This document shows positions 3,773 to 46,623 of a stretch of 46,806 bases of DNA, piece by piece. The stretch is from UHGV virus genome UHGV-1361067. One strand, 5' to 3'. The stretch comes from a virus. The notes beneath the pieces were generated by a model. That model was not told the DNA's origin and ran no database searches. It saw nothing but the letters and a program-made list of their open reading frames with translations. How positions within the stretch are numbered: position 1 is the stretch's first letter; the number at the start of each line of letters is the position of its first letter. The position numbers and the translations under genes were made by a program.

Positions 3773-3824
3773 TGATGTAGTTATGTCAATGCGCCTTGAC
3801 GTAGATTCTAGCATGGCGTAGATT
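3773..3824 (+). promoter_or_regulatory. Rightward sigma70-like promoter with three copies of the TGAYGTAGATT motif
   Basis: TTGACG (3796-3801), 17-nt spacer, TAGATT (3819-3824). Motif copies: TGATGTAGTT at 3773, TGACGTAGATT at 3797, TGGCGTAGATT at 3814. The region is divergent with the leftward small-gene operon. Confidence 0.55.
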
Positions 3825-3850
3825 AAAATGAAACCTCTCGGAGAAATCTT

Positions 3851-4141
3851 ATGAAATGTGTCATTTTCGAGCTTGATGGCGTGCTGCGCGATGCTGAGGG
3901 TAATGCCATTGCTGGCAACGTTGCGCTGGCTAAGTCGCTCTACTCTGCCGGGCACGACGTCCTAATCATGAGGGCAAAGCATGCGTATGAGTGGCTGCAT
4001 GCTAACGATGTTTTCTATGATGACATTATGGCTTCGCACCAGCAGATTGACGCTGAAAGGGTGGCAATGGCGGTCGTGTCTGATGACGTGATTTATGCTG
4101 CCATGCGAAATGCGGGGATTCATTGCTGGCTTTACAAATAA
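3851..4141 (+). CDS. Hypothetical protein with a HAD-like N-terminal motif (VIFELDGVL)
   Basis: 96-aa ORF. GGAG lies 8 nt upstream of the ATG. The N-terminus resembles HAD motif I but with Glu in place of the first Asp. Confidence 0.5.
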   Translation: MKCVIFELDGVLRDAEGNAIAGNVALAKSLYSAGHDVLIMRAKHAYEWLHANDVFYDDIMASHQQIDAERVAMAVVSDDVIYAAMRNAGIHCWLYK

Positions 4142-4154
4142 TTTATTATAAATG

Positions 4155-4183
4155 TTGACGTGGATTCATGGTTGATGTAGATT
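4155..4183 (+). promoter_or_regulatory. Rightward promoter TTGACG-N17-TAGATT
   Basis: TTGACGTGGATT at 4155 and TTGATGTAGATT at 4172. It is preceded by AT-rich ATTTATTATAAAT. Confidence 0.5.
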
Positions 4184-4227
4184 GTAGTCATTGAGGCGGC
4201 CGGGGCCGAAATGAATGAGGTGCAAAA

Positions 4228-4560
4228 ATGCAATATCAAGAACGTACTACTGAATTACAAAACTTATATGCGGTTCGCGTAATAAATATGGTTTTAATGG
4301 GGATTGAGGTTAGTAAGTCGTCATACGTTGATCGCTTTATTCACTCACTCTACAACGGCGTTAAATCTAATTGGAATGAAGATTGCACATGGACTGAGCA
4401 CTTTGTTGAAAAACTTAACGAGGAGCGTGAGTCAATAAAAAATGGCTCTTATTGGAAGATGGGGGATTTTTTTAGATTAATTGCTGCTGAAGATAAGGAG
4501 TTCTGGGAGGCGATAGGTGTCCCATTTAAAACATGGAAAAGCATTCAGCTTTGCAATTGA
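4228..4560 (+). CDS. Hypothetical protein (AT-rich, moron-like)
   Basis: 110-aa ORF with a GAGGTG SD. Its GC content is markedly lower than the flanking genes. Confidence 0.5.
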   Translation: MQYQERTTELQNLYAVRVINMVLMGIEVSKSSYVDRFIHSLYNGVKSNWNEDCTWTEHFVEKLNEERESIKNGSYWKMGDFFRLIAAEDKEFWEAIGVPFKTWKSIQLCN

Positions 4561-4568
4561 TTACAGCC

Positions 4569-4592
4569 AGGCCCCGCAACGGGGCTTTTTCT
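4569..4592 (+). terminator. Rho-independent terminator GCCCCG-caa-CGGGGC + T5
   Basis: Perfect GC hairpin and T-run. The same hairpin core recurs at 37610. Confidence 0.6.
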
Positions 4593-7126
4593 TATCTCCT
4601 GCTCCTTCTAATCCATCCAGAGCCACGCTGTACGATGTGATCGTTGCATGCATATCTGATTGCGTCAATGAAGTGGTTCCACGCATCCACAATATTTGTG
4701 AGCACGTTACCCGTCAGCTTGTCCACCTTGTAACTGTACATAGTGAACTCTTCCTGAGTCTGTGTGCAGCGGTCATGAATGATGATGCTGTCGCAACCCC
4801 TGAGCCAGGTTACACCCTCCTCCACGCTCCCGGGCCACTTATTGCATGGATGGATATCAAATCCTGCGCGTTTGATGTGACTGATTGTTTCTGGCCGAGA
4901 GCAGTCCCCATACCATCTTGCCTTCCTGGAGAGTGGGAATGATTGCTCCATCGCTGTAGGTGTGTCGGTAATCTCAAGGCCTACACGGCCGTATTCGCGC
5001 GCGACGTAAAGGTTGCGGCGGTCATCAGGAAGTTTCTCAATGTAAACCTCAACCATCGCCGTTGCGTCCTGCGAGAATCCAAAGTCGATGCCAAAGTAAG
5101 GCCCATGCCATTCCGGCTTAACCTCGAAATCAGCAACGCGCCACTTACCGCCAAATACCTGCTCATCATTACGCTTATTAAAGCGCCCACCCCACACCCA
5201 TTGATAGCGGTCGAAGTCGGTCTCTTTCATGCGTTGCATTTGGCTTGGGAGCGGAGTATCCCAGAACCACGGATTGTCTGAGTAATTACACTCCATAATC
5301 AGGTTTTCATCATCCTCATAGATGCCGCCATTTTCGCGCAATTTATTATAAAAAGGCTCAACCCATATTTTCCACGTCGGGTCATGCTCTTTATTTGGGT
5401 TGAAAGTCACCCATATCTCTGACCCTTCAGCGCGGACTGTTGGGGTGAGGATTTCCCAGCTTGTCTGGCTGACGTTTTCCGCCTCCTCGACCCAAGCTAC
5501 TGTAATGCCAGCGAAGCCTTTTACGGTCGTCTGGTTGCGATACAGGCCTTTAAAGCGGAACTTTGCTTTCGTTACCTTGTGTGTTATTTCGTTGTTGATG
5601 ACGCGAAACTCTTTTGTCTCGCCCTTCCTGTCAATCTCGTCTTTCAGCTCCTGATATGAACTATCCTCAATAGACTGCTGAATCTCACGAAAACAAGCTA
5701 TCCTGTCAGGCTTAAAGCGTGCACGCTCCGTAAGTATTGTTGTTACTGTCCTTGTTTTTCCGCTGTTGTGTGTAACCGTGCCATCAGCAAGCAGGAAAAG
5801 ATGATCGCCATCAATAGTGAACCCAGCGTATTCACCATGCCCGACATAAGACAATGACACCTCAGACATCTTTCCACGGGTTGACTTGGTTTTCTCTGCT
5901 ATCTTCCTTTTTACTCGGCATGGGATTGTATGAAGGTCACCACTAACGAACACCTCCCATACGTCCTTTTCGTATATTCTTTTCTCACCTTTATATTCAA
6001 AGGTGACATCAGTCTTTTTGATTATGCTTGACTTGAAGCCAAGCGATCTTGCCACATCCATCAAAGAGAAGGCCATTTCTTTATTTATTGATGTGAAAGA
6101 ATAGCTTTTCTTTTTCTGGTCATAATGCGAATCAGTATCCAATAGCCCAGCCAGAATCTGAAGTCTTACCTCTCTGCTGTTTTTGATATAGCAGTCAGGT
6201 ATGTGTTTATTATTAATCACCCCAAGCTGCTGCATTTTAGTTAGTAACGGGTTGGTGTTCTTCCCCATGCCAGCAGCTCGACCATTAGTTATCGCATAGA
6301 CAGGGCATCTATCATCGTCGCGAACCTTTACCTGCATCCCGTATTGGCTTGCCACGTTGTGAATGTAGTCAACTATCTCTGGATCAGGCGTGCACACTTC
6401 AACACCACGAGATGAACCATCACCTAACCATAAACCAAGAAAGTACGGGTCAACTGGGACGCTTTGGTCATTAAAATCCCATCCTGTTCGCCACCCTTTA
6501 AAGACATGGCGGAACTTTTTTGAAGTTGCGCGCGACAAATATTCTGAAACACCAATATTCAGTATTTCAGGTTCATTCGGGTAATAACGATAAATTCTTT
6601 TACCATCCGGTGTTTTTGTCTCGTCACTGATAGCAGATGGAATCTTTCGTAATGACAGTATGTGACTTGAGTTGACAGTGTAGTCATCAGCATATTTTTG
6701 ATGAACCGTATACATGTCATCAAACCCCCGACAGATGTTTAAAACATTTCGTGGTTTACTGTCTGGACCCATAACCTTATCGCCAACAACGATATCCTCT
6801 ACGCGTTTTAGGCTACCATCAAACATCCTCACCATCGTGCCGATGGCTAAGCATCCGCGCCCGCCAAACACAATCTTATTACGCTTGGGGTAAAGTAGCT
6901 TTTCCAGCTTTTCTGGTATCAGGTGATCAACGCCAATATCAGAGTCGCTAACGTCATCAACTCCGCTTTGCGTCATTTTTAGTTTGCGAACAATCTGCTT
7001 ATCTGTATTAACAACACCGAACACCGCAGATTCAGGCGCATCAATCACGCCATCGCCAATAATCTCTTCGAGTTTTTCAATTGCTGGTGCTGAGAGTCTT
7101 TTGCGTGCCATATATAGATTCCTCAT
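4592..7126 (-). CDS. Terminase large subunit, interrupted by an in-frame intein
   Basis: 844-aa ORF. The N-extein ends …KIVFGGRG, and the C-extein begins SGKTRTV…, so the junction reconstitutes the Walker A motif FGGRGSGKT. Walker B-like VAWVEEAE lies downstream. Without the intein the protein is about 481 aa. Confidence 0.8.
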   Translation of the reverse strand: MRNLYMARKRLSAPAIEKLEEIIGDGVIDAPESAVFGVVNTDKQIVRKLKMTQSGVDDVSDSDIGVDHLIPEKLEKLLYPKRNKIVFGGRGCLAIGTMVRMFDGSLKRVEDIVVGDKVMGPDSKPRNVLNICRGFDDMYTVHQKYADDYTVNSSHILSLRKIPSAISDETKTPDGKRIYRYYPNEPEILNIGVSEYLSRATSKKFRHVFKGWRTGWDFNDQSVPVDPYFLGLWLGDGSSRGVEVCTPDPEIVDYIHNVASQYGMQVKVRDDDRCPVYAITNGRAAGMGKNTNPLLTKMQQLGVINNKHIPDCYIKNSREVRLQILAGLLDTDSHYDQKKKSYSFTSINKEMAFSLMDVARSLGFKSSIIKKTDVTFEYKGEKRIYEKDVWEVFVSGDLHTIPCRVKRKIAEKTKSTRGKMSEVSLSYVGHGEYAGFTIDGDHLFLLADGTVTHNSGKTRTVTTILTERARFKPDRIACFREIQQSIEDSSYQELKDEIDRKGETKEFRVINNEITHKVTKAKFRFKGLYRNQTTVKGFAGITVAWVEEAENVSQTSWEILTPTVRAEGSEIWVTFNPNKEHDPTWKIWVEPFYNKLRENGGIYEDDENLIMECNYSDNPWFWDTPLPSQMQRMKETDFDRYQWVWGGRFNKRNDEQVFGGKWRVADFEVKPEWHGPYFGIDFGFSQDATAMVEVYIEKLPDDRRNLYVAREYGRVGLEITDTPTAMEQSFPLSRKARWYGDCSRPETISHIKRAGFDIHPCNKWPGSVEEGVTWLRGCDSIIIHDRCTQTQEEFTMYSYKVDKLTGNVLTNIVDAWNHFIDAIRYACNDHIVQRGSGWIRRSRR
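5765..6853 (-). mobile_element. Intein (363 aa) with a double-LAGLIDADG homing endonuclease, in the terminase P-loop
   Basis: Begins with Cys (CLAIGTMV…) right after GGRG. Ends …LLADGTVTHN, followed by the +1 Ser (SGKT). Internal LGLWLGDGS and LAGLLDTDS motifs match LAGLIDADG. Boundary codons were verified on the sequence (gca at 6851-6853 is Cys; gtt at 5765-5767 is Asn). Confidence 0.75.
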
Positions 7127-7210
7127 CAGGGCATCATTGAAGTGAATGCGGCAGGCGGTGATGAGTCGCTTTTCGGGTGCCCCCTAGCCGCATTGATTAT
7201 TATAAATCAG

Positions 7211-8661: not shown

Positions 8662-9363
8662 TCATTGTTTCCCCTCCTGCGGGGCGGCTGCAATCATCGC
8701 TCGATAAGCCGTGGGGCTATACACAGCCGCTTCACGATAGGAAGCCTGTAGCATTTCCTCCGTAGGCTCCTTCGGGACCATCACGTAACCATCCGGCACT
8801 ACCGGCGCTGGCTGCATTTCATCTTGCTCTGCGCGCAAATCCTCCAATTCCTCACCCAATTTCAAAATATACTCGATGACATGAGAGTGAATACCATGGC
8901 AGTTATCCTTGAATAGCTGCTCAGATACCCCCTCATAACATTTCACCGTGGGGTTGCTTTTGCTTTTGATGAAGGAAACGATAGCGTCAAGAGCGTTTTT
9001 GCTTCCGATATGATTTTCCACCGGCTCGCTGTCCATTGCGGCCAGCTGGCGCTCAGCCAATTCCGCGCGAGCATCGAGCGTCACGTTAGCTGCACAGAGT
9101 TTTTGCTCTGCGTCTTCCAGTTCGGCGATCCGCTGCTGCGCCTTCTCCAGTGCCTCTACCAGCGTGCCAATAACCTTTGCAGCTTGCCCGCACTCATCGA
9201 CGATAGAAACGTTGGTGCCGGTATCTCGGCCATCTACCTCAAACCGCAAATCAACGTCATCGGAGTCGATATCAGCAGGCTCAAACTGCGAGATATATTC
9301 CAGGGTAAATACAGACGCTTTAGCTTTACTGACGAGTAGCGCCAGTTCGGTGATATCAGTCAT
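8662..9363 (-). CDS. Hypothetical coiled-coil protein (Ead/Ea22-like?)
   Basis: Likely start is MTDITELALL at 9363. The central coiled coil (EALEKAQQRIAELEDAEQKL) resembles Ea22-family early proteins of enterobacterial phages. Recalled from memory. Confidence 0.4.
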   Translation of the reverse strand: MTDITELALLVSKAKASVFTLEYISQFEPADIDSDDVDLRFEVDGRDTGTNVSIVDECGQAAKVIGTLVEALEKAQQRIAELEDAEQKLCAANVTLDARAELAERQLAAMDSEPVENHIGSKNALDAIVSFIKSKSNPTVKCYEGVSEQLFKDNCHGIHSHVIEYILKLGEELEDLRAEQDEMQPAPVVPDGYVMVPKEPTEEMLQASYREAAVYSPTAYRAMIAAAPQEGKQ

Positions 9364-9802
9364 GATTAGCCCCCTCGCGCAGCTGCTTGGCGAAGTCGTC
9401 AGCAGAAAGTGCAACCCCTTTTGCTAAAGCGTCAAAAAACTGGTCATCACCAGGGATTCGAAGTTTTGCCGCGAACTTCTCAACTCCGCGCGCCTCGGCT
9501 TCGGCCATGATGCGATCGGTAGCTGGGGTTTCCGGCGCATGCATAATTGCGACAAGCATTGCATCATGCATGCAATCCGCATCAGAGCATCCAAGCGCCT
9601 CTGCTGTTTTAAACTCCCGGTACATGTTTTTGAATGCATCCGTTTTGCACCATGCGTTGATGTCCTTCAGCGCCACATTCTCCGCAGCCAGCTGCGCACA
9701 CAGCTTTGCAACATTGAGGTATTTTTCCTCTTTGATTGAGAGTTCACCACCGCTCTCAAGATTTTTAATAATTTCCTGAACTTCGTTGATTTCGATATCC
9801 AT
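9356..9802 (-). CDS. Hypothetical protein
   Basis: 148-aa ORF in the leftward early operon. Confidence 0.5.
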   Translation of the reverse strand: MDIEINEVQEIIKNLESGGELSIKEEKYLNVAKLCAQLAAENVALKDINAWCKTDAFKNMYREFKTAEALGCSDADCMHDAMLVAIMHAPETPATDRIMAEAEARGVEKFAAKLRIPGDDQFFDALAKGVALSADDFAKQLREGANHD

Positions 9803-10102: not shown

Positions 10103-10288
10103 TTAGTTTCCACCAGATGACACGATAACCTGCTCAAGCACTCTCTGCTTGCCTTCGCCACTAAAAACTCGACAGACGCGCTTACCGTTGCTGTATGAAT
10201 GCATTGCCTGCGCCATCATAAAGTCTTGCGCTTTCACTGCGCCCATTTCTGGTTCCAGTTGAGTGCGCGTGTAGATTGCTTTGGTCAT
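10103..10288 (-). CDS. Hypothetical protein (first gene of the leftward early operon)
   Basis: 61-aa ORF. A GAGG SD precedes the ATG on the minus strand. Confidence 0.45.
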   Translation of the reverse strand: MTKAIYTRTQLEPEMGAVKAQDFMMAQAMHSYSNGKRVCRVFSGEGKQRVLEQVIVSSGGN

Positions 10289-10319: not shown

Positions 10320-10348
10320 ACTATACGATGGCGCTCAATCTACGTCAA
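10320..10348 (-). promoter_or_regulatory. Leftward promoter TTGACG-N17-TATAGT containing TTGACGTAGATT
   Basis: The minus-strand sequence tattgacgtagattgagcgccatcgtatagt has the same architecture as the rightward promoter at 35399. A second GTGTAGATT copy lies at 10270-10279 on the plus strand. Confidence 0.5.
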
Positions 10349-10388: not shown

Positions 10389-10657
10389 GTGTTCCCACAA
10401 TTCCCAGCCGTTCCCGGACTAGTTCCCCGAATTTATTGTTATATATCAACGAGTTCCCGAGTTCCCAGCTTTTCCCTTAGAAATGAATTTTCCCAAAAAT
10501 CAGAAATTCCATTTTTAATAATAAAAACAACAACATATATTAAAGGTATATATTACTTTTTTACTAGAGGAATTCCCCGGGAACTCGGGAACTCCTCTGC
10601 AAGCCTTGGTGTGAGCGGCCTGCGAGTTCCCAAATGCGCGGGAACTCTTGGGAACTG
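10389..10657. repeat. Iteron array: GAGTTCCC / GGGAACTC direct and inverted repeats flanking an AT-rich element
   Basis: Plus orientation: GTTCCC-type copies at 10391, 10400, 10410, 10421, tandem GAGTTCCC at 10451 and 10459, and GAGTTCCC at 10624. Minus orientation: tandem GGGAACTC at 10579 and 10587, 10640, and GGGAACTG at 10650. A palindromic pair GAGTTCCC-N8-GGGAACTC lies at 10624-10647. An AT-rich stretch at about 10495-10565 lies between the arrays. Confidence 0.7.
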
Positions 10658-13670: not shown

Positions 13671-13699
13671 TTGACGATGATGTAGATTCATTGTAATTT
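13671..13699 (+). promoter_or_regulatory. Rightward promoter TTGACG-N17-TAATTT with TGATGTAGATT in the spacer
   Basis: First element of the duplicated module; compare 17664-17692. Confidence 0.5.
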
Positions 13700-17262: not shown

Positions 17263-17684
17263 AGCAGCTTGATAGTGGAATATGGGTATTTGATAGCGGT
17301 TATCGCGGAGAATGCCCAAAGGAGGAGACTGACCAGATGGGTTACGGCACATGGATGCAACACCGCTTCCCTGATGTTCTGTGGTTTCATGTACCAAACG
17401 AAACTGGCACATCAAGCATGGTGCAGTTTGTGCTGAAGCGCCAGAAGATGGGGGTTAAGGCTGGGATAGGCGATAACGTGATAATGACGCCAGGGGTAAA
17501 TCACAGTTGCGGGATGATTGAAGCAAAGCGCCGCGATAAAAGCAAAAGCAGGGTTAGCAAAGAGCAATCCGCTGTGTTAACTGAGATGTGCAGGCTTGGT
17601 CATTATGCCGCCATCGCTTACGGTCTTGATGAACTAAAAAAAGCCACACTTTTCTATTTTGGCTTGCTGAATGATGTAGATTGA
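17259..17684 (+). CDS. VRR-NUC domain nuclease
   Basis: GVKAGIGDNVIM…GMIEAKRRDKSKSRVSKEQ matches the VRR-NUC (PD-(D/E)xK) signature. TTG start with an AGGAG SD. An alternative ATG lies at 17337. Confidence 0.6.
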   Translation: MKQLDSGIWVFDSGYRGECPKEETDQMGYGTWMQHRFPDVLWFHVPNETGTSSMVQFVLKRQKMGVKAGIGDNVIMTPGVNHSCGMIEAKRRDKSKSRVSKEQSAVLTEMCRLGHYAAIAYGLDELKKATLFYFGLLNDVD

Positions 17685-17692
17685 TGTATTGT
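17664..17692 (+). promoter_or_regulatory. Rightward promoter TTGCTG-N17-TATTGT with ATGATGTAGATTGATG in the spacer
   Basis: Homologous to the promoter at 13671. Confidence 0.45.
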
Positions 17693-30833: not shown

Positions 30834-30868
30834 GTCTAAATCCTGTTTTCATAATGACGTAATTATAC

Positions 30869-30898
30869 CATTGACAGGTGGCGCAAAACTGACGTAGA
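30869..30898 (+). promoter_or_regulatory. Rightward promoter TTGACA-N18-TAGATT with a TGACGTAGATT motif
   Basis: A near-palindrome TAATGACGTAATTA lies upstream at 30851-30864. Confidence 0.5.
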
Positions 30899-30929
30899 TT
30901 GAAAGCATAAGGTGATTGAGGGTTTGACA

Positions 30930-32605: not shown

Positions 32606-32650
32606 GTTTAGAATCCTCTCTGTTTAGCTAAACAATCGCATTATATCATG

Positions 32651-32679
32651 TTGACAGGTTTTGATTGGTGGTGTAGATT
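32651..32679 (+). promoter_or_regulatory. Rightward promoter TTGACA-N17-TAGATT (GTGTAGATT variant)
   Basis: Hexamers at 32651-32656 and 32674-32679. Confidence 0.5.
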
Positions 32680-33293: not shown

Positions 33294-33318
33294 AAGCCGC
33301 TCATCAGCGGCCTTTTCT
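33293..33318 (+). terminator. Rho-independent terminator GCCGCT-catc-AGCGGC + CTTTTCT
   Basis: Hairpin directly after the small ORF. Confidence 0.5.
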
Positions 33319-35398: not shown

Positions 35399-35427
35399 TT
35401 GACGTAGATTGAGGGTGTCGCTATAGT
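35399..35427 (+). promoter_or_regulatory. Strong rightward promoter TTGACG-N17-TATAGT with TTGACGTAGATT
   Basis: A second TGACGTAGAAA copy lies at 35429-35439, around +1. Confidence 0.6.
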
Positions 35428-35467
35428 GATGACGTAGAAACAACAATAAATGTTAGAGGTGATGAGG

Positions 35468-35761: not shown

Positions 35762-35881
35762 TCCGCCACGAAATACGAAAAGAAGACCTGAAGGCGTGGG
35801 GCAAGTTCAAAATCAAGCTGGCATTAATTGTTATCGGATTCGCTATTGCCAGTGCAATCTGTTTATCAAAGTGAGGAAAAG

Positions 35882-36697
35882 ATGACATCTCTCGGAAAAA
35901 TTTACTCAGACAAAGAAACTCGCGGCGGAATCGTGGTCAACAAAGGTTATCAGGTTCCTGTCGATCAGCTTTATCTTGAGCCGGGATACAACATCCGCGA
36001 AGCCGATGAGCAGCACGTTGAATACTTCGCGCAGTGCTGGGAATCAGGCCAACCAATCCCGGCGTTAACTGTTATTCCTGATGCTGACGGAAAGAGAATC
36101 AAGATTCTTGACGGCCAGCATCGTTATCTTGGCGCACTGCGCGCCATTGAGCGCGGCGTACCAATTGTGCGCATTGAGTGCAAAGACTTCACCGGCGATG
36201 AAGCGGATAAAATCGCCTTCATGGTGTCATCCAGTCAGGGTAAGCAACTCGACCCGCTTGAGCGTGCAAAGGCTTATGTGCGCCTGAAGGGGTTCGGATG
36301 GACGAATGAAGAAATCGCCAAAAAAGTAGGCCGCTCAGTTTCTGATGTGCAGATGCATCTGTCACTTGGTGATGTGCCTGATGCTATCAAGCAACGCATC
36401 AATGCAGGCCAAATCAGCTATGCCAACGCCGTTGCAGTCGCACGTGAGCATGGCGATGATGCCGTTAACGTTATTGATGCTGCTGTTGAGGAAGCGAAAG
36501 CGCAGGGCAAAGATAAGGTGACGGCGAAAACGCTCAAGGCCAAAAAAGTTAAGCCGATTGACCGCCTGATTCAGTTGCTGAAAGAAGCAGATCACATGGT
36601 TGTTGCTGAGGGTCACGTGGCACAGGAAACAGAAGAATTTTTGCGCCTTCCCTCTGCTGAACTGAATGAAGTGCTGGCGATTCTGGAGAAGCTGTGA
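35882..36697 (+). CDS. ParB-like protein (ParB/Srx N-terminal domain + HTH)
   Basis: KILDGQHRYLGALRA (ParB GxxR box) and an HTH TNEEIAKKVGRSVSDVQMHLSL. GAGGAAAAG SD. Confidence 0.65.
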   Translation: MTSLGKIYSDKETRGGIVVNKGYQVPVDQLYLEPGYNIREADEQHVEYFAQCWESGQPIPALTVIPDADGKRIKILDGQHRYLGALRAIERGVPIVRIECKDFTGDEADKIAFMVSSSQGKQLDPLERAKAYVRLKGFGWTNEEIAKKVGRSVSDVQMHLSLGDVPDAIKQRINAGQISYANAVAVAREHGDDAVNVIDAAVEEAKAQGKDKVTAKTLKAKKVKPIDRLIQLLKEADHMVVAEGHVAQETEEFLRLPSAELNEVLAILEKL

Positions 36698-39469: not shown

Positions 39470-40743
39470 TATTCAGGTGCCTCCATATCAAAATCTTCTT
39501 CGGCGCGGTTCGGCTGGAACCCGCCGGAAATCGGAGCCGCTTTACTGGTGAGTGCATAGGTTTCACGCAGTGCTTCGCCAGTCAGCGCATTAACAGCAGA
39601 TTCCGGCAACTTCAACTCAGCCATAATGGCGGCGCGCATTGCGGTCTCTTCTTGCGCAGCATTGGCTTGCAGCTGGTCGCGTAGGGTTTTGTTTTGCGCC
39701 TCCACATCGGCCAGTTTCTGGTTGACTGCGGTCAACGATTCCTGAACCGGTTTGAGGGCTTCAGCGAGTACCGCCTGTAATTCCTCGTTCGTCATTGAGA
39801 TTTCCCCTTGAGTTGTTTTTACCGGTTCAAGCTCTGTCTTATAAACAGCCTTAACCCGTTCACCGACTAATTCTACCATATCCTCACGGACGATGTAGGA
39901 CTGCATATAAATGGTGCCGTCAATCTCAACGCCGAAGTAATTATCATAAACGGCGACGATATAAGGCCACGAGTCGGCTGGCATCTCGGCCTTGATGATA
40001 TTGCGGAGCTGCTCGGTAATATCGGTGAATGACAGTTGATTGCCAGTCAGGCGATTGATGGCGCGCTGCCACCATTTGATTTTGTTTGCACTTTCGTCTG
40101 GAATAGCCGATTCCTCAAGGTTAACCACGACGCGCTCAATGTCTTCGCCATTGGTGGCAAAAATGCCAACACCATCTTCTGGTGTTCCAGCCCCTGGCAC
40201 GCCCGGAGGAAGAATGGCGAGGTGATCCCATTCCATATTCCTGGCAATCCACGTGTATTTCTTGCCTTTGCTTGTTCCTTCCGCTGCTTCACGGTTAAGC
40301 AATAGGCCAGTGGATACATGAATTGGCTCTGCACTATCGGCAGAATTCATTAGCGCCTCAATGCGACCAAGTAACTCCCGACCTTTCTCTGAGCGACCAG
40401 CGATAACTTTGTTTACCTTTAGGTCAACAAGCACCTTTCCGCCATCGTGTGACGCGTTCTCGATCCATGAGCCGACATGGTACTGGTTCACGGCGCGAAT
40501 ATTGTGAGCGGACACATAAGAACCGTCTACCACCGGGTGATTGTACGGCGCCGGATTTCCATTCAGACCATTATATGACTTCTTGATTTCGTCAGATGGA
40601 TACATCCCGCCATTCATCACTACATCATCGACAAGAGGAACAACATTCTTTATAATGTAATGCATGTCTCCATCAATAACCTGCTCGCTAATGTTGCTTG
40701 CGCTATTGATGGTGGTCAAGACGTTAACTTGTAACCTTTTCAT
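39469..40743 (-). CDS. Prohead protease / scaffolding protein (DUF2213-like)
   Basis: 424 aa with a C-terminal coiled coil ([38 protein letters not shown]) and an acidic tail. Position upstream of decoration and MCP. Confidence 0.5.
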
Positions 40744-40769: not shown

Positions 40770-42179
40770 GTGGATTATATCATGCCGAAGAAGATGACGA
40801 TTGATGAACTCAAAGAAAAGCTGCGTAGCGTTCATGGCGAGACGTATGAGTATGATTTTTATACCTTCCATGGCTGCCACTCACCAATGAAAATAGTATG
40901 CAAAAAGCATGGGGAATTCTGGCAAAAGCCATCCAAACACCTTCATGGTCAGGGGTGTGCAAAGTGCCAAAAGGGCGTCATTTCTGTCGATGATTTTAAA
41001 TCAATGGCTTCCGCTGTTCACAGAGGAAAATATGACTATAGCAAGGTTTTTTTTGAAACGTTTTCTCGGGAAAAGGTAACAATCGGATGCCCGATCCATG
41101 GGTGGTTTGAGCAAGGAGCCTACATTCACCTGAAACGTGGTAATGGATGCCCAAGGTGCGGGGATGAGAGTTCGAGGAAAGCAAAGATCAAAATGTTCGG
41201 TGATTTTGTTGATGATGCGAAATGCATCCATGGAGATAAATATGAGTATTCACCGAATGGGTTTACTGGTTCCCGAGGCAAGATTAATATCTTATGCCCT
41301 GTGCATGGGGAGTTTACTCAGGGTGCAGCAAATCATCTTGCTGGGAATGGGTGCCCATCGTGCGCTGGAGTAATGTCAAACGCAGAAGCCGATATCCTTG
41401 CATTTGTTAAGTCACTAGACCCATATGCAATCAGTAGGGATAGAGCGACGATAGCGCCATATGAACTTGATATAGTCTCAAAATCCAAATCATTAGCCAT
41501 AGAGGTAAACGGCGTGTACTGGCACTCGGAGAAGGTCGGGAAAGATAGGCTTTATCACAGAATGAAGAGGGAGAGGGTTGAAGCGTCTGGAATGAGATTA
41601 ATAAGCATAAGAAGCGATATCTGGAGAGATAAAGAAGATTTGGTCAAATTAATAATAATGAATGCCATGGGCTGTAGGCCTAATGAAAACATAAACGCAA
41701 GAGAATGCGTCGTTAAAGAAGTATCAAGTCGTGATTCTAGGGATTTTCTTGATGCACATCACGTGATGGGTGGAAAGAACGCCAGCAGGCATTTCGGGCT
41801 GTTCAATGGTGATGATTTAGTTTCAGTTATGACTTTCACGATAAAATCAGGCGCAACAGAGCTTGTGAGGTTTGCGTCGAAGTGCAACGTTAGAGGCGGG
41901 CTTACCAAGATGCTAAAAAACTGCTCTTCAATCATCGGGTTTGACAGGTGCTTTAGTTATGTTGATCTTGATTTGTTTACTGGCAAGTCATACATAGCGG
42001 CAGGATTTAAACCAGTTAGCATAAAGCCAGGATTTGGCATAGTTAATGGCAGTAATGTAGAGTCAAGACAGAAATGGAACAAGGCGCCGAAAGGTATGAC
42101 CCAAACAGAATGGTACGAATCTGAGGGTGTTAGCAGGATATGGGACAGCGGACAGATGAGAATAGAGTGGAGTAGATAA
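40770..42179 (+). CDS. Homing-endonuclease-like protein: four tandem zinc-ribbon repeats + Vsr/DUF559-like PD-(D/E)xK nuclease domain
   Basis: Repeats of C-x2-HG-x-F…G-x-GC-x2-C, four times (CKKHGEFW…GCAKCQ; CPIHGWFE…GCPRCG; CIHGDK…; CPVHGEFT…GCPSCA). Then DIVSKSKSLAIEVNGVYWHSE, like Vsr-type AIFIDGCFWHGH. Confidence 0.5.
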   Translation: MDYIMPKKMTIDELKEKLRSVHGETYEYDFYTFHGCHSPMKIVCKKHGEFWQKPSKHLHGQGCAKCQKGVISVDDFKSMASAVHRGKYDYSKVFFETFSREKVTIGCPIHGWFEQGAYIHLKRGNGCPRCGDESSRKAKIKMFGDFVDDAKCIHGDKYEYSPNGFTGSRGKINILCPVHGEFTQGAANHLAGNGCPSCAGVMSNAEADILAFVKSLDPYAISRDRATIAPYELDIVSKSKSLAIEVNGVYWHSEKVGKDRLYHRMKRERVEASGMRLISIRSDIWRDKEDLVKLIIMNAMGCRPNENINARECVVKEVSSRDSRDFLDAHHVMGGKNASRHFGLFNGDDLVSVMTFTIKSGATELVRFASKCNVRGGLTKMLKNCSSIIGFDRCFSYVDLDLFTGKSYIAAGFKPVSIKPGFGIVNGSNVESRQKWNKAPKGMTQTEWYESEGVSRIWDSGQMRIEWSR

Positions 42180-42181
42180 AC

Positions 42182-42212: not shown

Positions 42213-42316
42213 TATCTAGCAGCAATAAAGCACCACGAAACGGACGCAAGAAGGTAAAGCGGAGATGCGGTAAAAGCGAAAAGAGTAGCAAAGAATGATA
42301 TCAGTATGATTGGCAT
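42194..42316 (-). CDS. Small hydrophobic peptide (40 aa, single TM + basic tail)
   Basis: AGGAGG SD 6 nt before the ATG. MPIILISFFATLFAFTASPLYLLASVSWCFIAARYKKGAT. A 10-bp inverted repeat GGCTGCTACC/GGTAGCAGCC spans the RBS and start. Confidence 0.35.
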   Translation of the reverse strand: MPIILISFFATLFAFTASPLYLLASVSWCFIAARYKKGAT

Positions 42317-42360
42317 GGCTGCTACCTCCTGAATGCAAGGTAGCAGCCAATGATGAAGAT

Positions 42361-42705
42361 TTATTGAGGACTATTCTTATTTAGCATTCCGCAGTTAATT
42401 TTTGCGCGGTTTACTGCATCCATGAATTTCCCGATGGGCATCGTTTTGCGGATTTCAGCCAGAATAGCGCCGTGCAACATTCTTTCCTCACCGTAGTAGA
42501 GCTTATCAAGACGGGTGCGAACCAGCGCGCGGGTGCGCTGCATATGTCCCTTCGCCTTCATGGCCTTCTCTTTCCATACCCTGCCTGCATCATGATTCCC
42601 GGAGAGCTGGCGCTCGATAGCTTCGATTTCAAAGGCAAGCATCATATCCCATGAGTCAAGCTCGCTAATTGTTGCTTCCATGATTTCGTTAAGTTGTAGT
42701 TTCAT
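42361..42705 (-). CDS. Hypothetical protein
   Basis: 114-aa ORF. Confidence 0.45.
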   Translation of the reverse strand: MKLQLNEIMEATISELDSWDMMLAFEIEAIERQLSGNHDAGRVWKEKAMKAKGHMQRTRALVRTRLDKLYYGEERMLHGAILAEIRKTMPIGKFMDAVNRAKINCGMLNKNSPQ

Positions 42706-42996
42706 TTACGACTCCACATCCAAATGTTTGACTTCGCCATCTTTGTATAACCTCCAGGGGATGCAAACGATGCATCCACCAATATTCATTTCAATGGAGT
42801 GCTCACCCTCTCTGAATGAATCTGCATGCCACTGGCTAACTGTGTCGTCGTGCCATGTAATTTTAATTAATGCGCTTTTTGGTTTGCTCACATTCACCTC
42901 CTCCACTATCCATCCCATCTCTCTACGATTATTGGCTGTGCGTTCACAGTTGGTGACAAACAGCACGGTTCCTGATTTATGCTTTACCGCCCACAT
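42706..42996 (-). CDS. Hypothetical protein
   Basis: 96-aa ORF. Confidence 0.45.
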   Translation of the reverse strand: MWAVKHKSGTVLFVTNCERTANNRREMGWIVEEVNVSKPKSALIKITWHDDTVSQWHADSFREGEHSIEMNIGGCIVCIPWRLYKDGEVKHLDVES

Positions 42997-43454
42997 GACT
43001 GGCGCGCCCCGGCAAGCAACTTTTCAAACATCATCCTGTCACGGCTCATGCCAAACGGGATGATCTCCTGCCAGTAATATTTCCATGCGCCGCCGGGAAG
43101 CATTTCACGATCAACCTGACCAATGCTTGCCAGGTAGCGCATGCGTGCCTTGAGGATGGTGTAGTTGACGCCGACAGCCTCCGCTATCTGCTTGCTCTTG
43201 CGCCCGGGATTCGCCTCAAGATAGGTCTGAATTGCCAGGTCAAGCGCAGTATTATCGGGATTGAGGAAATACTTAAAGCAGCGCCTGCCATGGCTTACGC
43301 TTTCCTCTTTAATAATAAATCCCATGCCCTCAAGCTCAATCAGATAACCAGTAACGCTGGCTCGGTTTGTCATGCCAGTCTGCTTGCGTATCATGGCATT
43401 GGTTGCGCCGCCGCAGCGCTCTATCACCGTGAGTATTTGCGTTTTAAAGTCCAT
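42984..43454 (-). CDS. Putative DNA-binding protein with two winged-helix domains
   Basis: Likely start is MDFKTQIL at 43454. Two wHTH-like segments: ILTVIERCGGATNAMIRKQTGMTNRASVTGYLIELEGMGFI and IQTYLEANPGRKSKQIAEAVGVNYTILKARMRYLASIGQV. Confidence 0.45.
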   Translation of the reverse strand: MDFKTQILTVIERCGGATNAMIRKQTGMTNRASVTGYLIELEGMGFIIKEESVSHGRRCFKYFLNPDNTALDLAIQTYLEANPGRKSKQIAEAVGVNYTILKARMRYLASIGQVDREMLPGGAWKYYWQEIIPFGMSRDRMMFEKLLAGARQSCGR

Positions 43455-43680: not shown

Positions 43681-43912
43681 TTATCGCCTCCTTAATCATA
43701 AATTTCATCTGAATACCACATAGTTTAAGCAACACCTTATCCCTGCGATAATCTCGCTTTCTGTTTGGCCTTCTGCGCTTAGGATGTAGCTTTTGCTTCA
43801 ATGTTCGGCGGTCAGGCTGGTTTCGCTGCCATCTGGCCCTTGCGTTGTTTTCCCTGATATCAGCCATGATTAACTGATGCAGGGTGCTGGCCTTGCTCAT
43901 TTCGCCACCCAT
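43661..43912 (-). CDS. Hypothetical basic protein
   Basis: 83-aa ORF, Arg/Lys-rich. Confidence 0.4.
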   Translation of the reverse strand: MGGEMSKASTLHQLIMADIRENNARARWQRNQPDRRTLKQKLHPKRRRPNRKRDYRRDKVLLKLCGIQMKFMIKEAINEANDE

Positions 43913-44088
43913 TCACCAATATTGCTGAAATGCGGGCGCCCTTCGCGCCACTCGATAATTTCGCGGTTAACCTGCCGCTGCATGCGGTTGCGAACTTCGC
44001 GCAATTCGCTTTCAACCCAGGCGCGAGTACGGTCGAGTTCCTCCAGCTTGTTCAACAACTCTTTTTCGTACACCTGATCAGTATTCAT
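43897..44088 (-). CDS. Hypothetical coiled-coil protein
   Basis: 63-aa ORF. Confidence 0.4.
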   Translation of the reverse strand: MNTDQVYEKELLNKLEELDRTRAWVESELREVRNRMQRQVNREIIEWREGRPHFSNIGEWVAK

Positions 44089-44387: not shown

Positions 44388-44433
44388 TCCACACCACTCC
44401 TCATCACTGTGATATAATCTACACCATCTAGTA

Positions 44434-44459
44434 TTGACTAATTGACGTAGATTAGTCAA
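44434..44459. promoter_or_regulatory. 26-bp palindromic operator TTGACTAAT-TGACGTAG-ATTAGTCAA in a divergent promoter region
   Basis: Perfect 9-bp inverted arms around an ACGT core. It contains the TTGACGTAGATT motif. A TATAAT lies at 44413-44418, and GTGTAGATT sits on the minus strand at 44416-44424. Confidence 0.6.
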
Positions 44460-44483
44460 GATGGTTTTCACAGGAGAGCGACA

Positions 44484-44684
44484 ATGGCGAGACAACGCAA
44501 AGAACCACTGGAAGTACTGACTGAGATTATCGCTAAGCGCCAGCCGTTAAGCCTGCGAGATGTCAGATATTACGCGCACTGCTATGTAGCAATGCGGGAA
44601 TGGAGCGCTGAAGAAATGTATGCGTTTGTGCGTGAGCACTTCAGCGTGGATGAGAAAAACAAAGTTACGTTGAGGGTGGAGTGA
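44484..44684 (+). CDS. Hypothetical protein
   Basis: 66-aa ORF with a GGAGAG SD. Confidence 0.5.
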   Translation: MARQRKEPLEVLTEIIAKRQPLSLRDVRYYAHCYVAMREWSAEEMYAFVREHFSVDEKNKVTLRVE

Positions 44685-45154: not shown

Positions 45155-45366
45155 TGCCAATACAAGACCCCGTGCCACGCATTGAAATCGACATGGTGGA
45201 GTTACACGAACCTGCCCGGCGCGATTATCATGTCCCGAGGCTTGGAGAACCAGCAGCCTACATCATCACCAGCAATCGTGGTCGCCGTTATCTGGCATTT
45301 GCTGGTAGTGTTGAGCATCAGAATGCGACCATGTTTGGGTACAAAATGGAGGCGCTTTATGCGTGA
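45151..45366 (+). CDS. Hypothetical protein
   Basis: 71-aa ORF. ATGA overlap. Confidence 0.4.
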   Translation: MMPIQDPVPRIEIDMVELHEPARRDYHVPRLGEPAAYIITSNRGRRYLAFAGSVEHQNATMFGYKMEALYA

Positions 45367-45386
45367 GATTGACCTTGGCATTTTCT

Positions 45387-45417
45387 AAAACAAAGCCCCT
45401 TACGGGGCTTTTTTATT
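45387..45417. terminator. Bidirectional terminator AAAGCCCC-ttac-GGGGCTTTTTT
   Basis: Hairpin between the rightward 3-gene cassette and the convergent lysis cassette. Confidence 0.6.
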
Positions 45418-45658
45418 GGAAGTTATCGCGATACCAATCCTGCCAGTCGTAAATCGTCATCTTTCTTTTTGTGGCGCACTCCGTGTTCTGGTTCTCCATA
45501 ACGATACTTTCGTCGCTATTTTTTGGCGCCACTTTCGATAATTCGCACACCTGACCTAGCATCTCTGCTGACGGAGGCGTCGGCGTCGAGTGATTGTTGG
45601 CGCAACCGCTGATAGTTGTCATCAAAAACACACACATTACGATTCGGGTCGGAGACAT
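45413..45658 (-). CDS. o-spanin (Rz1-like outer-membrane lipoprotein)
   Basis: Lipobox …TISG|C. Pro-rich (TPTPPS) mature region. Lies in the +1 frame overlapping the 3' part of the i-spanin gene. Confidence 0.65.
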   Translation of the reverse strand: MSPTRIVMCVFLMTTISGCANNHSTPTPPSAEMLGQVCELSKVAPKNSDESIVMENQNTECATKRKMTIYDWQDWYRDNFQ

Positions 45659-45896
45659 ATTTCACCACGTCGCGGTAAATGGTTTTGTATTTGGTTTCAG
45701 TCACAACGCGCACCTGCTGAGATTGCTCCGTGGACTTAGCCTGCTTGCTTTGCACCTCCTGCCTGCGCTTTTCTGCGTCACGATTAACTTTTTCGCTGTG
45801 CGCATACCATCCCTTCATGTATCCAGCGCCATAACCAGATGCAGCAATGATTACCGCGACGCCTATGGCGATTAGAATTAACTTAATTCTGGTCAT
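45516..45896 (-). CDS. i-spanin (Rz-like)
   Basis: N-terminal TM (LILIAIGVAVIIAASGYGAG), then a charged coiled coil. Confidence 0.65.
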   Translation of the reverse strand: MTRIKLILIAIGVAVIIAASGYGAGYMKGWYAHSEKVNRDAEKRRQEVQSKQAKSTEQSQQVRVVTETKYKTIYRDVVKYVSDPNRNVCVFDDNYQRLRQQSLDADASVSRDARSGVRIIESGAKK

Positions 45897-46116
45897 TTTT
45901 CAGCGCCTTAATCTCTTTCTTCATGTCGTGCATTTTTCCAAACAGCGAGGCAAGAAGGATGCTGTAGCTGATCGCCTTTACCGCAATCGGCGGAATGGCA
46001 GACCTGAGGTCTTCAGGCATGAAAGCCCACACATGAACCATGGCGTCAGGCCAGAGCTGAATCAGCGAGCAGAATGATGCCCAAATGCCGATAAGCCAGT
46101 TACTGATGCGCTTCAT
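45883..46116 (-). CDS. Putative holin (2 TMDs)
   Basis: Start MKRISNWL at 46116 (ATGA overlap with the endolysin stop). Two hydrophobic helices and a charged C-terminus. Confidence 0.45.
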   Translation of the reverse strand: MKRISNWLIGIWASFCSLIQLWPDAMVHVWAFMPEDLRSAIPPIAVKAISYSILLASLFGKMHDMKKEIKALKNDQN

Positions 46117-46547
46117 GACATGTAGACCTGACGTTCTGCCGCCCTGCGCTTGGTCAGTCCGTTCATGACTTTGCCATTGGCGCGATTCCATACCCGGAAC
46201 TGGTCGGCGGCGCAGGTGTAGCAGCGGGCATTATGCTTTTTCAGCAGAGTTGATTTGCCAAAGTTACCAAGGCCAATGTTGTAGGCCAGCGACACCATTG
46301 CATCAAACTGGCCCTGAGTGGTTGGGGCAGTGACGAGTGACGAGACGCCGCTTTCAAACTTTGCCACGTCGTCACGCAGCATCTTTTCAGCTTTCTCTGC
46401 GGTGATAACCATGCCTGGCTTAACGCCATTGGTTGTGCCATATCCGATAGTCCACGGCGCTCCGCCAGTTGCCGGGTCTGGATATGCCTTCGAGCTGTAA
46501 CCCTCGAATTGTTTAATTAAATCAATGCCACGCTGCGATAGTTTCAT
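46113..46547 (-). CDS. Endolysin (GH24 lysozyme, T4 E / lambda R family)
   Basis: GIDLIKQFEGYSSKAYPDPATGGAPWTIGYGTT is the classic GH24 catalytic region. GGAGG SD. Confidence 0.85.
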   Translation of the reverse strand: MKLSQRGIDLIKQFEGYSSKAYPDPATGGAPWTIGYGTTNGVKPGMVITAEKAEKMLRDDVAKFESGVSSLVTAPTTQGQFDAMVSLAYNIGLGNFGKSTLLKKHNARCYTCAADQFRVWNRANGKVMNGLTKRRAAERQVYMS

Positions 46548-46587
46548 TTTTACCTCCGGTGATGCAGATTATTTTATCACAATAGTC

Positions 46588-46623
46588 TTGACGTAGATTG
46601 AATCGTAAGCGATGATGTAGATA
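46588..46623 (+). promoter_or_regulatory. Rightward promoter region with TTGACGTAGATT + TGATGTAGATA
   Basis: Motif copies lie 24 bp apart. The same segment on the minus strand probably carries the lysis-cassette promoter (TTCAAT…TGATAAAAT). Confidence 0.45.

Follow-up and report, generated by a model that had tools for sequence, protein, structure and literature searches.

The window, here the whole stretch of 46,806 nucleotides of virus genome UHGV-1361067, is a Roufvirus-like Klebsiella siphophage. Scattered over it are promoter regions (P1 to P10) that share an 11-bp word, TGAYGTAGATT, and an ORF with a Shine-Dalgarno sequence lies ∼20-80 nt downstream of nearly every site. The regions are organized as follows:

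3773..3824, plus strand: P1, three direct 11-mers at 3773 (TGATGTAGTTA, copy a), 3797 (TGACGTAGATT, copy b) and 3814 (TGGCGTAGATT, copy c); hexamers TTGACG (3796)-N17-TAGATT (3819-3824); drives a 96-aa gene (3851-4141). TGCTAGAAT on the minus strand (3813-3805) may be a leftward extended -10; the reverse complement of copy b overlaps it
4155..4183, plus strand: P2, 17-bp tandem of TTGACGTGGATT (supplying the -35) and TTGATGTAGATT (supplying the -10); drives gene 4228-4560
10320..10348, minus strand: P3, TTGACGTAGATT-N11-TATAGT, the first 6 nt of the 17-nt spacer being TAGATT; head of the leftward operon 10288 to 7211, which continues toward the terminase gene
13671..13699, plus strand: P4, TTGACG-a-TGATGTAGATT-cattg-TAATTT, 11-mer inside the 17-nt spacer; drives an HNH endonuclease gene (13731-14807) followed by the replication genes
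17664..17692, plus strand: P5, TTGCTG-aa-TGATGTAGATT-gatg-TATTGT, 11-mer inside the spacer; drives an HNH gene (17730-18356) followed by exo VIII, Erf and SSB
30855..30900, plus strand: P6, TTGACA (30871)-N18-TAGATT with TGACG directly before the -10, 11-mer at 30890-30900; drives cassette 30931-31829
32651..32679, plus strand: P7, TTGACA-N17-TAGATT with TGGTG preceding TAGATT, 11-mer at 32669-32679; drives region 32700-33300, where relatives hold tRNA genes
35399..35440, plus strand: P8, TTGACGTAGATT-N11-TATAGT, second copy TGACGTAGAAA at ∼+1 (35430-35440); drives module 35450-37600 (ParB-like and RusA-like genes)
44410..44462, both strands: P9 switch region, two divergent, fully overlapping promoters
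44434..44462, rightward: P9R, TTGACT (44434-44439)-N17-CAAGAT (44457-44462)
44459..44430, leftward: P9L, TTGACT (44459-44454)-N18-AATACT (44435-44430)
46560..46623, plus strand: P10, three direct copies at 46560 (TGATGCAGATT, copy a, 12 nt upstream of the leftward endolysin start codon), 46589 (TGACGTAGATT, copy b) and 46613 (TGATGTAGATA); TTGACG-N17-GATGAT drives a gene starting near 46650

In P9, one 11-mer (44443-44453) occupies the spacer common to P9R and P9L; a second one, on the minus strand (44426-44416), is found at ∼+1 of P9L, where it shares bases with a rightward TGATATAAT (44410-44418).

When one mismatch was allowed, TGAYGTAGATT matched the whole window 17 times, against 1.7 ± 1.4 expected from the shuffled background. 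The exact 12-mer TTGACGTAGATT was found five times (3796+, 10337-, 35399+, 44442+ and 46588+) rather than at the four sites claimed by an earlier note on this DNA, with an expected count of 0.0056 for a 12-mer (Poisson P = 4e-14); the exact 11-mer TGACGTAGATT is present six times once CTGACGTAGATT at 30889 is added to these. At up to two mismatches, there were 15 matches versus 3.3 ± 1.9 in dinucleotide shuffles, none of 100 shuffles reaching 15, and the motif ranks first in over-representation among the 10-, 11- and 12-mers of the window. Placement is equally skewed: 14 of the 17 matches are intergenic, although intergenic sequence makes up 7.0% of the window (binomial P = 3.5e-14), and two further ones straddle gene ends. 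All strong sites lie in promoter regions; the sole pair inside a gene (9231/9249) is degenerate. TGRYG precedes 12 of the window's 25 TAGATT hexamers, where ∼0.1 would be expected. Rfam had no match at the sites, and the motif was not found in a phage context in the literature searched.

The motif is bounded sharply at 11 bp, the leading T and the flanks carrying little information, which narrows the 11-12 nt assigned to it before; it is non-palindromic and lacks dyad symmetry. Nearly all copies point in the direction of transcription, and their spacings of 17, 24 and 29-30 bp agree with those noted previously (17, 24 and 29 bp), as do the coordinates to within 1-2 nt (3773, 3797, 3814, 4155/4172, 13677, 17671, 32669-32671, 35399/35429, 44416 on the minus strand, 44442 and 46560/46588/46612). 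The copy placed at 30853 is also present, at 30855-30865 within P6, if only in a form degenerated by a one-base deletion (TGACGTAATTA). What did not hold is that every rightward promoter or plus-strand cassette carries the motif: the HEG cassette 40770-42179 (plus strand) has its own promoter without it (TCGACA-N17-TATAAT at 40628-40656), and no motif promoter was found upstream of the helicase operon that begins at 10714.

The word is not confined to this genome. Segzyvirus, Macdonaldcampvirus, Cedarrivervirus and Bas81 contain 13-19 matches each, versus ∼1.8 expected, and Akiravirus contains 18 (a raw count, without shuffle control); in phage Jersey, the outgroup, there are none. Together, shuffles and outgroup rule out chance or low complexity as the source of the motif, and the conserved promoter/operator word postulated by the earlier note is real: enriched, mostly intergenic and shared by related genera. 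In IMG/VR, it appears confined to this clade: its 17-bp tandem form was recovered from 65 stretches, nearly all of them on contigs of 44-51 kb, which is the genome size of the clade (the rest being shorter fragments). None of 185,579 bacterial genomes contains the tandem form; no annotated relative encodes an integrase. Across phages of Klebsiella, Salmonella, Escherichia and Shigella, the word is invariant.

Individual promoters are conserved as well. The P1 arrangement recurs in three relatives (L001, L002 and L009), and P4 is conserved in three others (L004, L005 and L008), in which P5 has a second copy 10 bp downstream that gives TAGATT as the -10. The P3 orthologue of other genera is a 17-bp tandem of two 11-mers, both copies in P8 are conserved in all genera while the remaining spacer varies, and the P9 architecture is conserved in L005 and L008. 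Inverted copies are found in P9L and also in lysis-region promoters of other genera. When orthologous promoters were compared between genera with a protein identity of 35-80%, conservation was limited to the hexamers and the remainder of the 11-mer, and the other spacer bases varied. That only the 11-mer part of the spacers is conserved fits an asymmetric operator. Recent copy-paste of a single promoter is ruled out by the uninformative flanks together with the conservation of sites across genera.

The promoters themselves are of a familiar kind. P1, P2, P3, P6, P7, P8 and P10 match the sigma70 consensus at 9-10 of 12 positions (10 for P3), with spacers of 17-18 nt. In most promoters, the partner hexamer is exactly 17 nt away, a spacing that recurs in five genera, which indicates that the sigma70 holoenzyme is the polymerase. 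Host sigma70 RNA polymerase would thus read the hexamers, with TTGACG doubling as -35 and TAGATT as -10. The position of the 11-mer relative to these hexamers, however, is not fixed. It overlaps the -35 in P1b, P2a, P3, P8 and P10b, lies wholly within the spacer in P4, P5 and P9R (and, inverted, in P9L), and overlaps the -10 in P1c, P2b, P6 and P7; four more copies, at 35430, 44416, 3773 and 46560, are found at +1 or upstream without a hexamer partner. An operator accounts for all of these registers, which a single RNA polymerase contact cannot. As the earlier note had held, the conservation goes beyond what sigma70 needs.

Conceivably, though this appears doubtful to us, no separate factor is involved and the 11/12-mer is a clade-specific, optimized sigma70 module in which a -35 half is fused to a -10 half; it would spread by duplication, its halves being kept because host RNA polymerase uses, or recently used, each of them. 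TTGACG and TAGATT are indeed good hexamers, and the 17-bp tandem yields exactly TTGACG-N17-TAGATT. A conserved host RNA polymerase would account for an identical motif in all genera, and early promoters of phage T4 are likewise conserved beyond the host consensus. The hexamer halves not in use are also slightly more degenerate than those in use (TAGAAT, TAGATA and TGGATT after a -35; TGGCG and TGGTG before a -10). Given that one half of the word is a perfect -35-like element and the other a good -10-like one, plain promoter selection accounts for part of its conservation. However, no known RNA polymerase contact reads TAGATT at -29 to -24 or TGAYG at -17 to -13, and TGAYG as an extended -10 is ruled out, its TG lying 2 bp out of register. 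Moreover, the copies without partner in spacers, at +1 (35430 and 44416) and upstream (3773 and 46560) are still conserved across genera, and the frequency with which TGRYG sits on TAGATT is accompanied by flanks without any trace of recent duplication.

A second alternative, that the word is a box of the T4 MotA type at which a phage factor recruits RNA polymerase to middle promoters by activation or sigma appropriation, is very unlikely. The MotA box of T4 is centered at -30; in P1b, P2a, P3, P8 and P10b, the 11-mer spans approximately -34 to -24 (center -29) with the -10 element 11 bp downstream, and P9R, P9L and P10 have weak hexamer partners. Among textbook systems, T4 MotA and phi29 p4 also place a phage box beside a sigma70 -10, divergent early and late promoters share sites, and late promoters do without a -35. 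Here, in contrast, the 11-mer shifts in register between -34 and +1, and activation could not work from the positions at the -10, in the spacer or at +1; a consensus -35 is retained in most promoters, which, being near-consensus (10/12), should need no activator. No homologue of MotA, AsiA or p4 was found, and the early proteins had no MotA or AsiA family match in Pfam or PHROGs.

From the registers and the conservation of the word we infer that a protein binds it and that the effect of binding is repression. At least one copy lies between -35 and +10 in every motif promoter, so that a bound factor would occlude RNA polymerase and, thereby, would act as a global repressor. We consider it somewhat better than an even bet (a probability of roughly 55%) that TGAYGTAGATT is the asymmetric operator of one sequence-specific factor that globally represses essentially all non-structural promoters. 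The units placed under its control would comprise the early divergent region, the replication and recombination genes, the ParB/RusA module, morons and homing endonucleases, and repression would provide feedback on, or shut-off of, near-consensus promoters. Against an occluding repressor speaks the co-orientation of the copies with transcription, which occlusion does not require.

The regulatory principle would not be new but a further case of a known type of phage control, exemplified by L5 stoperators, P1 C1 operators and T1 repeats. In mycobacteriophages, dispersed asymmetric operators are read by a monomeric two-domain repressor (PMC9283540). The Cluster A phages among them (L5, TipsytheTRex; PMC9283540) likewise possess a short asymmetric word at ∼15-30 sites, promoters included, which is mostly oriented with transcription, as here; it measures 13-14 bp instead of 11 bp, and asymmetry in either case points to a monomeric or two-domain reader. 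In contrast to this clade with its lack of integrase and of tandem-composite matches in bacterial genomes, Cluster A phages are temperate, and their repressor confers immunity. Many of their sites also lie inside operons, where they stop elongation, whereas those described here are confined to promoters and fused to the -35 and -10 hexamers. The Cluster A repressor gp71 has no homologue in this phage, and the sole two-domain winged helix-turn-helix (wHTH) protein is dispensable in phage Akira (see below).

Closer in lifestyle are the T1-like lytic siphophages (T1, Stevie), which have a 22-bp asymmetric, oriented intergenic repeat of unknown role and binder (PMC4319613). With this clade, they share being lytic enterobacterial siphophages of 45-50 kb with 16-20 copies of an asymmetric, intergenic, transcription-oriented element. 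The T1-like repeat (VWATAGCAYKWWTTGYTAAAAV) is, however, unrelated in sequence, which makes the analogy one of kind, not of homology; it occurs in a different phage family (Drexlerviridae) and, unlike the 11-mer, is not reported to provide -35 as well as -10 hexamers. Among textbook cases, C1 of phage P1 is one regulator of scattered operons that binds asymmetric 17-bp operators overlapping promoters, and many promoters are similarly concerned here; P1 is temperate, though, its operator sequence is unrelated, and no homologue of the 283-aa C1 was detected. KorB of plasmid RK2, a ParB family protein with 12 OB operators, also reads one word at many promoters, and a ParB/KorB-like HTH protein is encoded in this genome too, but OB is a 13-bp palindrome as opposed to the asymmetric word here.

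Three proteins encoded in the window were considered as binder:

42984..43454, minus strand: tandem-wHTH protein, 156 aa, two tandem wHTH domains
35828..36697, plus strand: ParB/KorB-like HTH protein, ∼81% identical across genera, HTH invariant
44484..44684, plus strand: 66-aa protein, candidate regulator, first gene of P9R, present in 10/10 clade genomes

The tandem-wHTH protein is the candidate binder that the earlier note had named for its one-factor regulon, with a host factor as the alternative. Its identity across genera is 32-43%, whereas the DNA word is unchanged, and its predicted structure (AF2 pLDDT 76) showed only generic MarR/PadR and tandem winged-helix similarity in Foldseek. 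The gene is deleted in the Salmonella phages Akira and 64795_sal3; Akira, the one of the two scanned, keeps a full complement of 18 sites. This candidate is thus weakened, short of being excluded, while the clade-specific promoter/operator family that defines a regulon stands. The ParB/KorB-like protein was downgraded for similar reasons: phage VLCpiS13d has lost the gene but for a 25-aa remnant and retains 17 sites, and the word is not palindromic. A separate search for parS gave as only conserved 14-bp palindrome GAGATGCGCATCTC at 30787, which is uninformative, being situated in conserved coding sequence. That both annotated DNA-binding candidates are missing from viable relatives that keep the sites counts against the operator reading; it is as predicted if there were no phage factor, as in the sigma70 module, or if the factor came from the host.

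Six small proteins are encoded in every clade genome, none with a confident DNA-binding annotation. The predicted fold of the 66-aa protein (pLDDT 86), whose third helix is acidic, resembles a small winged helix, with Foldseek TM scores of 0.6-0.69 to winged-helix domains at non-significant E-values; by the model, it may be regarded as a positional candidate only. Most likely, the binder is either a small clade-wide protein, the 66-aa product being the best placed, or a host protein. Reading the 11-mer as the site of a conserved Enterobacteriaceae DNA-binding protein that ties the non-structural genes to host physiology would explain the invariance of the word in phages of four host genera despite their own regulators differing or missing, and also the lack of a clade-wide phage protein confidently annotated as DNA binding. 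Yet, a comparison by eye with known transcription-factor consensus sequences of E. coli or Salmonella (MetJ, FNR, DnaA, IHF, NarL and MarA) gave no convincing match, and the tandem composite is absent from the bacterial genomes searched, which renders this explanation improbable.

The structural genes appear to be expressed differently. The perfect extended -10 TGnTATAAT has five exact matches in the window (1.4 expected), and four of them precede the portal, head, major-tail and tail operons, at positions kept in 8/8 clade genomes scanned:

2720..2728, minus strand: late promoter of the portal gene, TGCTATAAT, perfect extended -10
30862..30870, minus strand: late promoter of the tail/tape-measure operon, TGGTATAAT, back-to-back with P6 and overlapping its degenerate 11-mer
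32640..32648, minus strand: late promoter of the major tail gene, TGATATAAT, 2 nt from the P7 -35, the predicted start sites being ∼53 bp apart
40774..40782, minus strand: late promoter of the head operon (39469-40743), TGATATAAT

Judged by sequence, the four structural operons probably use these conserved extended -10 promoters, which have no usable -35, instead of the 11-mer. At P6 and P7, a promoter with the 11-mer is placed back-to-back with, and overlapping, a -35-independent extended -10 promoter of the tail genes, and repression there could simultaneously free the late promoter. At P9, the same factor would decide between two fully overlapping divergent promoters. Extending the operator reading in this way, it may tentatively be proposed that a small phage or host protein constitutes a one-component temporal switch that occludes the non-structural promoters, frees those of the tail and arbitrates P9; we hold this to be possible rather than probable. 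It also counts against the operator reading that no strictly lytic siphophage of enterobacteria is known to offer an obvious precedent for one repressor governing every early and middle promoter.

Roufvirus- and Skatevirus-like phages are isolated widely, as candidates for therapy against Klebsiella, Salmonella and E. coli; a literature search on the clade retrieved neither transcriptome nor 5′ end data. The 11-mer and the four extended -10 promoters together amount to a near-complete, testable transcription map, from which one can read the co-regulated genes, the points at which morons and homing endonucleases join the circuit and the predicted starts of late transcription. In the annotation of ∼200 sequenced genomes, the word can serve as a reliable promoter marker. 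It is also a clean biochemical bait for the regulator, and Akira and VLCpiS13d, with their natural deletions, offer ready-made genetic controls. If the switch indeed operates as proposed, this strictly lytic clade of enterobacterial siphophages would possess an early-off/late-on circuit that works by promoter competition.

The 12-mer TTGACGTAGATT is found exactly at 3796, 10337 (minus strand), 35399, 44442 and 46588 of the window, against a random 12-mer expectation of 0.0056 (P = 4e-14), and the exact 11-mer form TGACGTAGATT additionally at 30890. When up to two mismatches were allowed, 15 matches were obtained versus 3.3 in shuffled sequences; TGAYGTAGATT (the 11-mer), the most over-represented 10-12-mer of the window, matched 17 times with at most one mismatch versus 1.7 in shuffles. 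When 104 non-redundant sites of eight genomes were aligned, the flanks proved nearly uninformative; the unit therefore comprises 11 bp. Although intergenic DNA makes up 7% of the window, it contains 14 of the 17 matches (P = 3.5e-14), and two others straddle gene ends; TGRYG lies directly 5′ of 12 of the 25 TAGATT hexamers. The earlier note had described a recurrent promoter word with tandem copies 17, 24 or 29 bp apart; its coordinates and spacings (17, 24 and 29-30 bp) proved correct on re-check, and the counts against shuffles, together with the intergenic placement, confirmed the observation itself. Inside ORF 8662-9414 there is a degenerate 18-bp tandem (ATGACGTTGATT … TTGAGGTAGATG; 9231-9260, minus strand), kept in the relative pYD38-A, which could act as an internal promoter or be a relic.

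Megablast placed the window among Roufvirus-like Klebsiella siphophages (pYD38-A, ZX4, MK54, BUCT541 and others; roughly 88-94% identity over 50-88% of each half). It shares the gene order of their annotated genomes: the long structural operons, read leftward, are broken by short rightward cassettes, and the replication genes form a block read rightward between about 10.7 and 20.5 kb. The large terminase ORF (4592-7126, minus strand) encodes 844 aa in the window and in pYD38-A; the protein of relatives has about 474 aa, of which only about 390 can be aligned, and in some of them a separate HNH gene lies upstream, which suggests an insertion, intein or fusion. Between this gene and that of a 158-aa protein, int-alpA RNA (RF02996) was matched in Rfam at 7131-7194 (minus strand; 42.6 bits, above the gathering score).

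Enrichment of the 11-mer equal to that of the window was observed in Segzyvirus LPSTLL, Macdonaldcampvirus Vi-II E1, Cedarrivervirus Sf11 and BASEL phage Bas81 (13-19 matches versus about 1.8), and Akiravirus Akira contains 18 matches (counted without shuffle control). Between these related phages and the window, many proteins have just 35-80% identity. The outgroup phage Jersey gave no match. The 17-bp tandem form was present in 65 IMG/VR stretches, nearly all on contigs of 44-51 kb, the genome size of the window's clade, and otherwise on shorter fragments; in 185,579 species-representative bacterial genomes it was not found. Because of this distribution across related genera, Jersey, IMG/VR and bacteria, the 11-mer is a hallmark of one lytic phage clade and, as far as the tandem form shows, neither a host element nor present in prophages. 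In the literature searched, it was not found in a phage context.

The sites belong to sigma70-type promoters (P1 to P10; a to c, successive 11-mer copies; R and L, rightward and leftward), and the best intergenic consensus matches are exactly the motif-bearing ones. These best matches contain TTGACG or TTGACA, 17-18 nt, and then TATAGT or TAGATT, and agree with the consensus at 9-10 of 12 positions; the 17-nt spacing is seen again in every genus. The register of the 11-mer relative to the hexamers is not constant.

Registers of the 11-mer in the promoters of the window
Over the -35: P1b (in P1, 3773-3824), P2a (in P2, 4155-4183), P3 (10320-10348, minus strand), P8 (35399-35440) and P10b (in P10, 46560-46623); TTGACG is the -35 and TAGATT occupies spacer positions 1-6
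Wholly within the spacer: P4 (13671-13699), P5 (17664-17692) and P9R
Over the -10: P1c, P2b, P6 and P7; TAGATT is the -10, with TGRYG 5′ of it
At about +1, without hexamer partner: 35430, and 44416 (for P9L)
About 25-30 bp upstream of the -35, without hexamer partner: 3773 and 46560

When orthologous promoters were aligned across genera, conservation within the spacers was confined to the hexamers and the rest of the 11-mer; all other spacer bases varied freely. At 44410-44462, P9R (TTGACT-N17-CAAGAT) and P9L (TTGACT-N18-AATACT), which lie on opposite strands, overlap in full and have one 11-mer in common, within their joint spacer; a second lies at +1 of P9L, and this architecture is kept in Vi-II E1 and Bas81. 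The HNH homing-endonuclease paralogues at 13731-14807 and 17730-18356 have in common their N-termini (…KKWLSP.RSARFAEMSLSELQKQ…), 5′ leaders and spacer-type 11-mer promoters. P7 drives 32680-33300, where relatives have tRNA genes (for Arg and Met in pYD38-A, for Ser and Arg in Sf11) but ARAGORN detected none in the window; over the first ∼60 nt of the transcript, conservation extends to Sf11 and Bas81.

Conservation at -34, -27, -17 and +1, in both orientations, cannot be accounted for by a single RNA polymerase contact; an operator read by a sequence-specific protein can explain the variable register. In each 11-mer promoter a copy lies somewhere from -35 to +10, and most of these promoters come close to the consensus. 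As such promoters should need no activator, and the copy lies within these bounds everywhere, repression by occlusion would be the most economical reading. The promoter/operator regulon proposed in the earlier note is retained; its universality and its suggested binder are not.

That binder, the 156-aa protein encoded at 42984-43454, does consist of two tandem winged-helix domains, as had been stated. Its identity across genera is just 32-43%, versus an invariant DNA word, and in the Salmonella phage Akira, which has 18 sites at homologous promoters, the gene is cut down to its first ∼23 codons; the same deletion junction occurs in the independently isolated 64795_sal3. A ParB/KorB-like protein (35828-36697) is far better conserved (about 81% identity across genera, HTH invariant). 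Against it count the non-palindromic word and the Klebsiella phage VLCpiS13d, in which the gene is reduced to 25 codons and 17 sites remain.

Natural deletions of candidate binder genes
Akira (L075), 31225-31293: tandem winged-helix gene; full 11-mer set kept
VLCpiS13d (L009), 15149-15223: ParB-like gene, apparently deleted also in VLCpiS13a; full 11-mer set in VLCpiS13d

As sites could persist for a time after the loss of their binder, neither deletion is proof, but both candidates lose weight. Six small non-structural proteins are encoded in all ten clade genomes examined.

Universal small proteins (10 of 10 clade genomes)
44484-44684: 66-aa product, first gene of P9R
3522-3761
42361-42705
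43897-44088
10103-10288
Lar-like protein

The position of the 66-aa product is Cro-like. It was modelled with a helix-strand-helix-helix-strand-strand topology (AF2, pLDDT 86), and Foldseek aligned it to winged-helix domains with TM scores of 0.6-0.69, albeit at E-values that were not significant; its third helix is acidic. The binder may thus be a universal small phage protein or a host protein; that there is no binder at all appears less likely.

The regulon has limits. The claim that every rightward promoter carries the motif fails at the plus-strand cassette 40770-42179, a homing endonuclease absent from close relatives, whose promoter (TCGACA-N17-TATAAT, 40628-40656) is without 11-mer, and at the helicase operon starting at 10714, for which no motif promoter could be recognised. 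The non-coding gap of 425 bp that separates P3 from this operon holds, at 10391-10655, 10 of the 15 GTTCCC/GGGAAC hexamers of the window, which flank a stretch of 69% A+T; GAGTTCCC (three copies) and GGGAACT (four) occur nowhere else in the window. This region is likely the replication origin.

All four structural operons are headed by a perfect extended -10 (TGnTATAAT) without -35.

Extended -10 elements heading the structural operons
2720-2728, minus strand: portal
30862-30870, minus strand: tail/tape measure
32640-32648, minus strand: major tail
40774-40782, minus strand: head

Exact TGnTATAAT occurs five times in the window versus 1.4 expected, and these four are kept at the same positions in all eight clade genomes scanned; they probably constitute a late promoter class. 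Two stand back-to-back with 11-mer promoters: the late -10 is just 2 nt from the -35 of P7 (32640-32679) and abuts that of P6 (30862-30900). Because the predicted start sites of each pair are about 50 bp apart, the polymerases should exclude one another. The late promoter would then gain from repression of its 11-mer neighbour, and a repression-driven early/late switch at P6 and P7 is plausible. Extended -10 elements with one mismatch (3813-3805, 35391-35383, 46579-46571) lie ahead of other leftward units, with inverted 11-mers overlapping or abutting them; since matches of this class show no genome-wide enrichment, they are only suggestive.

A terminator hairpin (AATCCCATCCATGCGATGGGATT, then a T-run; 2700-2728, minus strand) coincides in part, by its 5′ arm, with the portal promoter TGCTATAAT, an arrangement kept in all genera; upstream transcripts would end exactly where the late portal transcript starts. 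Another conserved hairpin (GGCTGCTACC…GGTAGCAGCC; 42300-42345, minus strand) separates the leftward early operon from the head late promoter. In the place that lambda Q takes stands the final gene of this early operon (42361-42705, minus strand); its product, a 114-aa protein among the universal ones, has an arginine-rich helix (…HMQRTRALVRTRLDKLYYGEERM…) and may be a late regulator. The 12-mer GGTGAAGTGATG (within GAGGTGAAGTGATGA), found at four gene junctions (2929, 19330, 37055, 45145), unites a Shine-Dalgarno sequence with overlapping stop and start, a translational-coupling cassette. The perfect 14-bp palindrome GAGATGCGCATCTC (30787-30800), kept in all clade genomes, lies in conserved N-terminal coding sequence of gene 30126-30833 and may reflect plain coding constraint.

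Among known systems, a KorB-type model fails because the 11-mer is asymmetric and VLCpiS13d keeps its sites without the ParB-like gene, and a MotA-type model because the register is variable. In presumed mode of action, the closest match is the operator/stoperator system of Cluster A mycobacteriophages, where more than 20 copies of an asymmetric 13-14-mer are recognised by a repressor that is monomeric and has two DNA-binding domains (PMC9283540). The operator network of P1 C1 is alike in the same respect. Unlike both, the clade is not temperate, has no homologous repressor, and restricts its sites to promoters. In kind, the closest match is the 22-bp asymmetric, oriented intergenic repeat of lytic T1-like phages (PMC4319613). 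The 11-mer system, which is cleanly testable, belongs to an already known kind of phage control.
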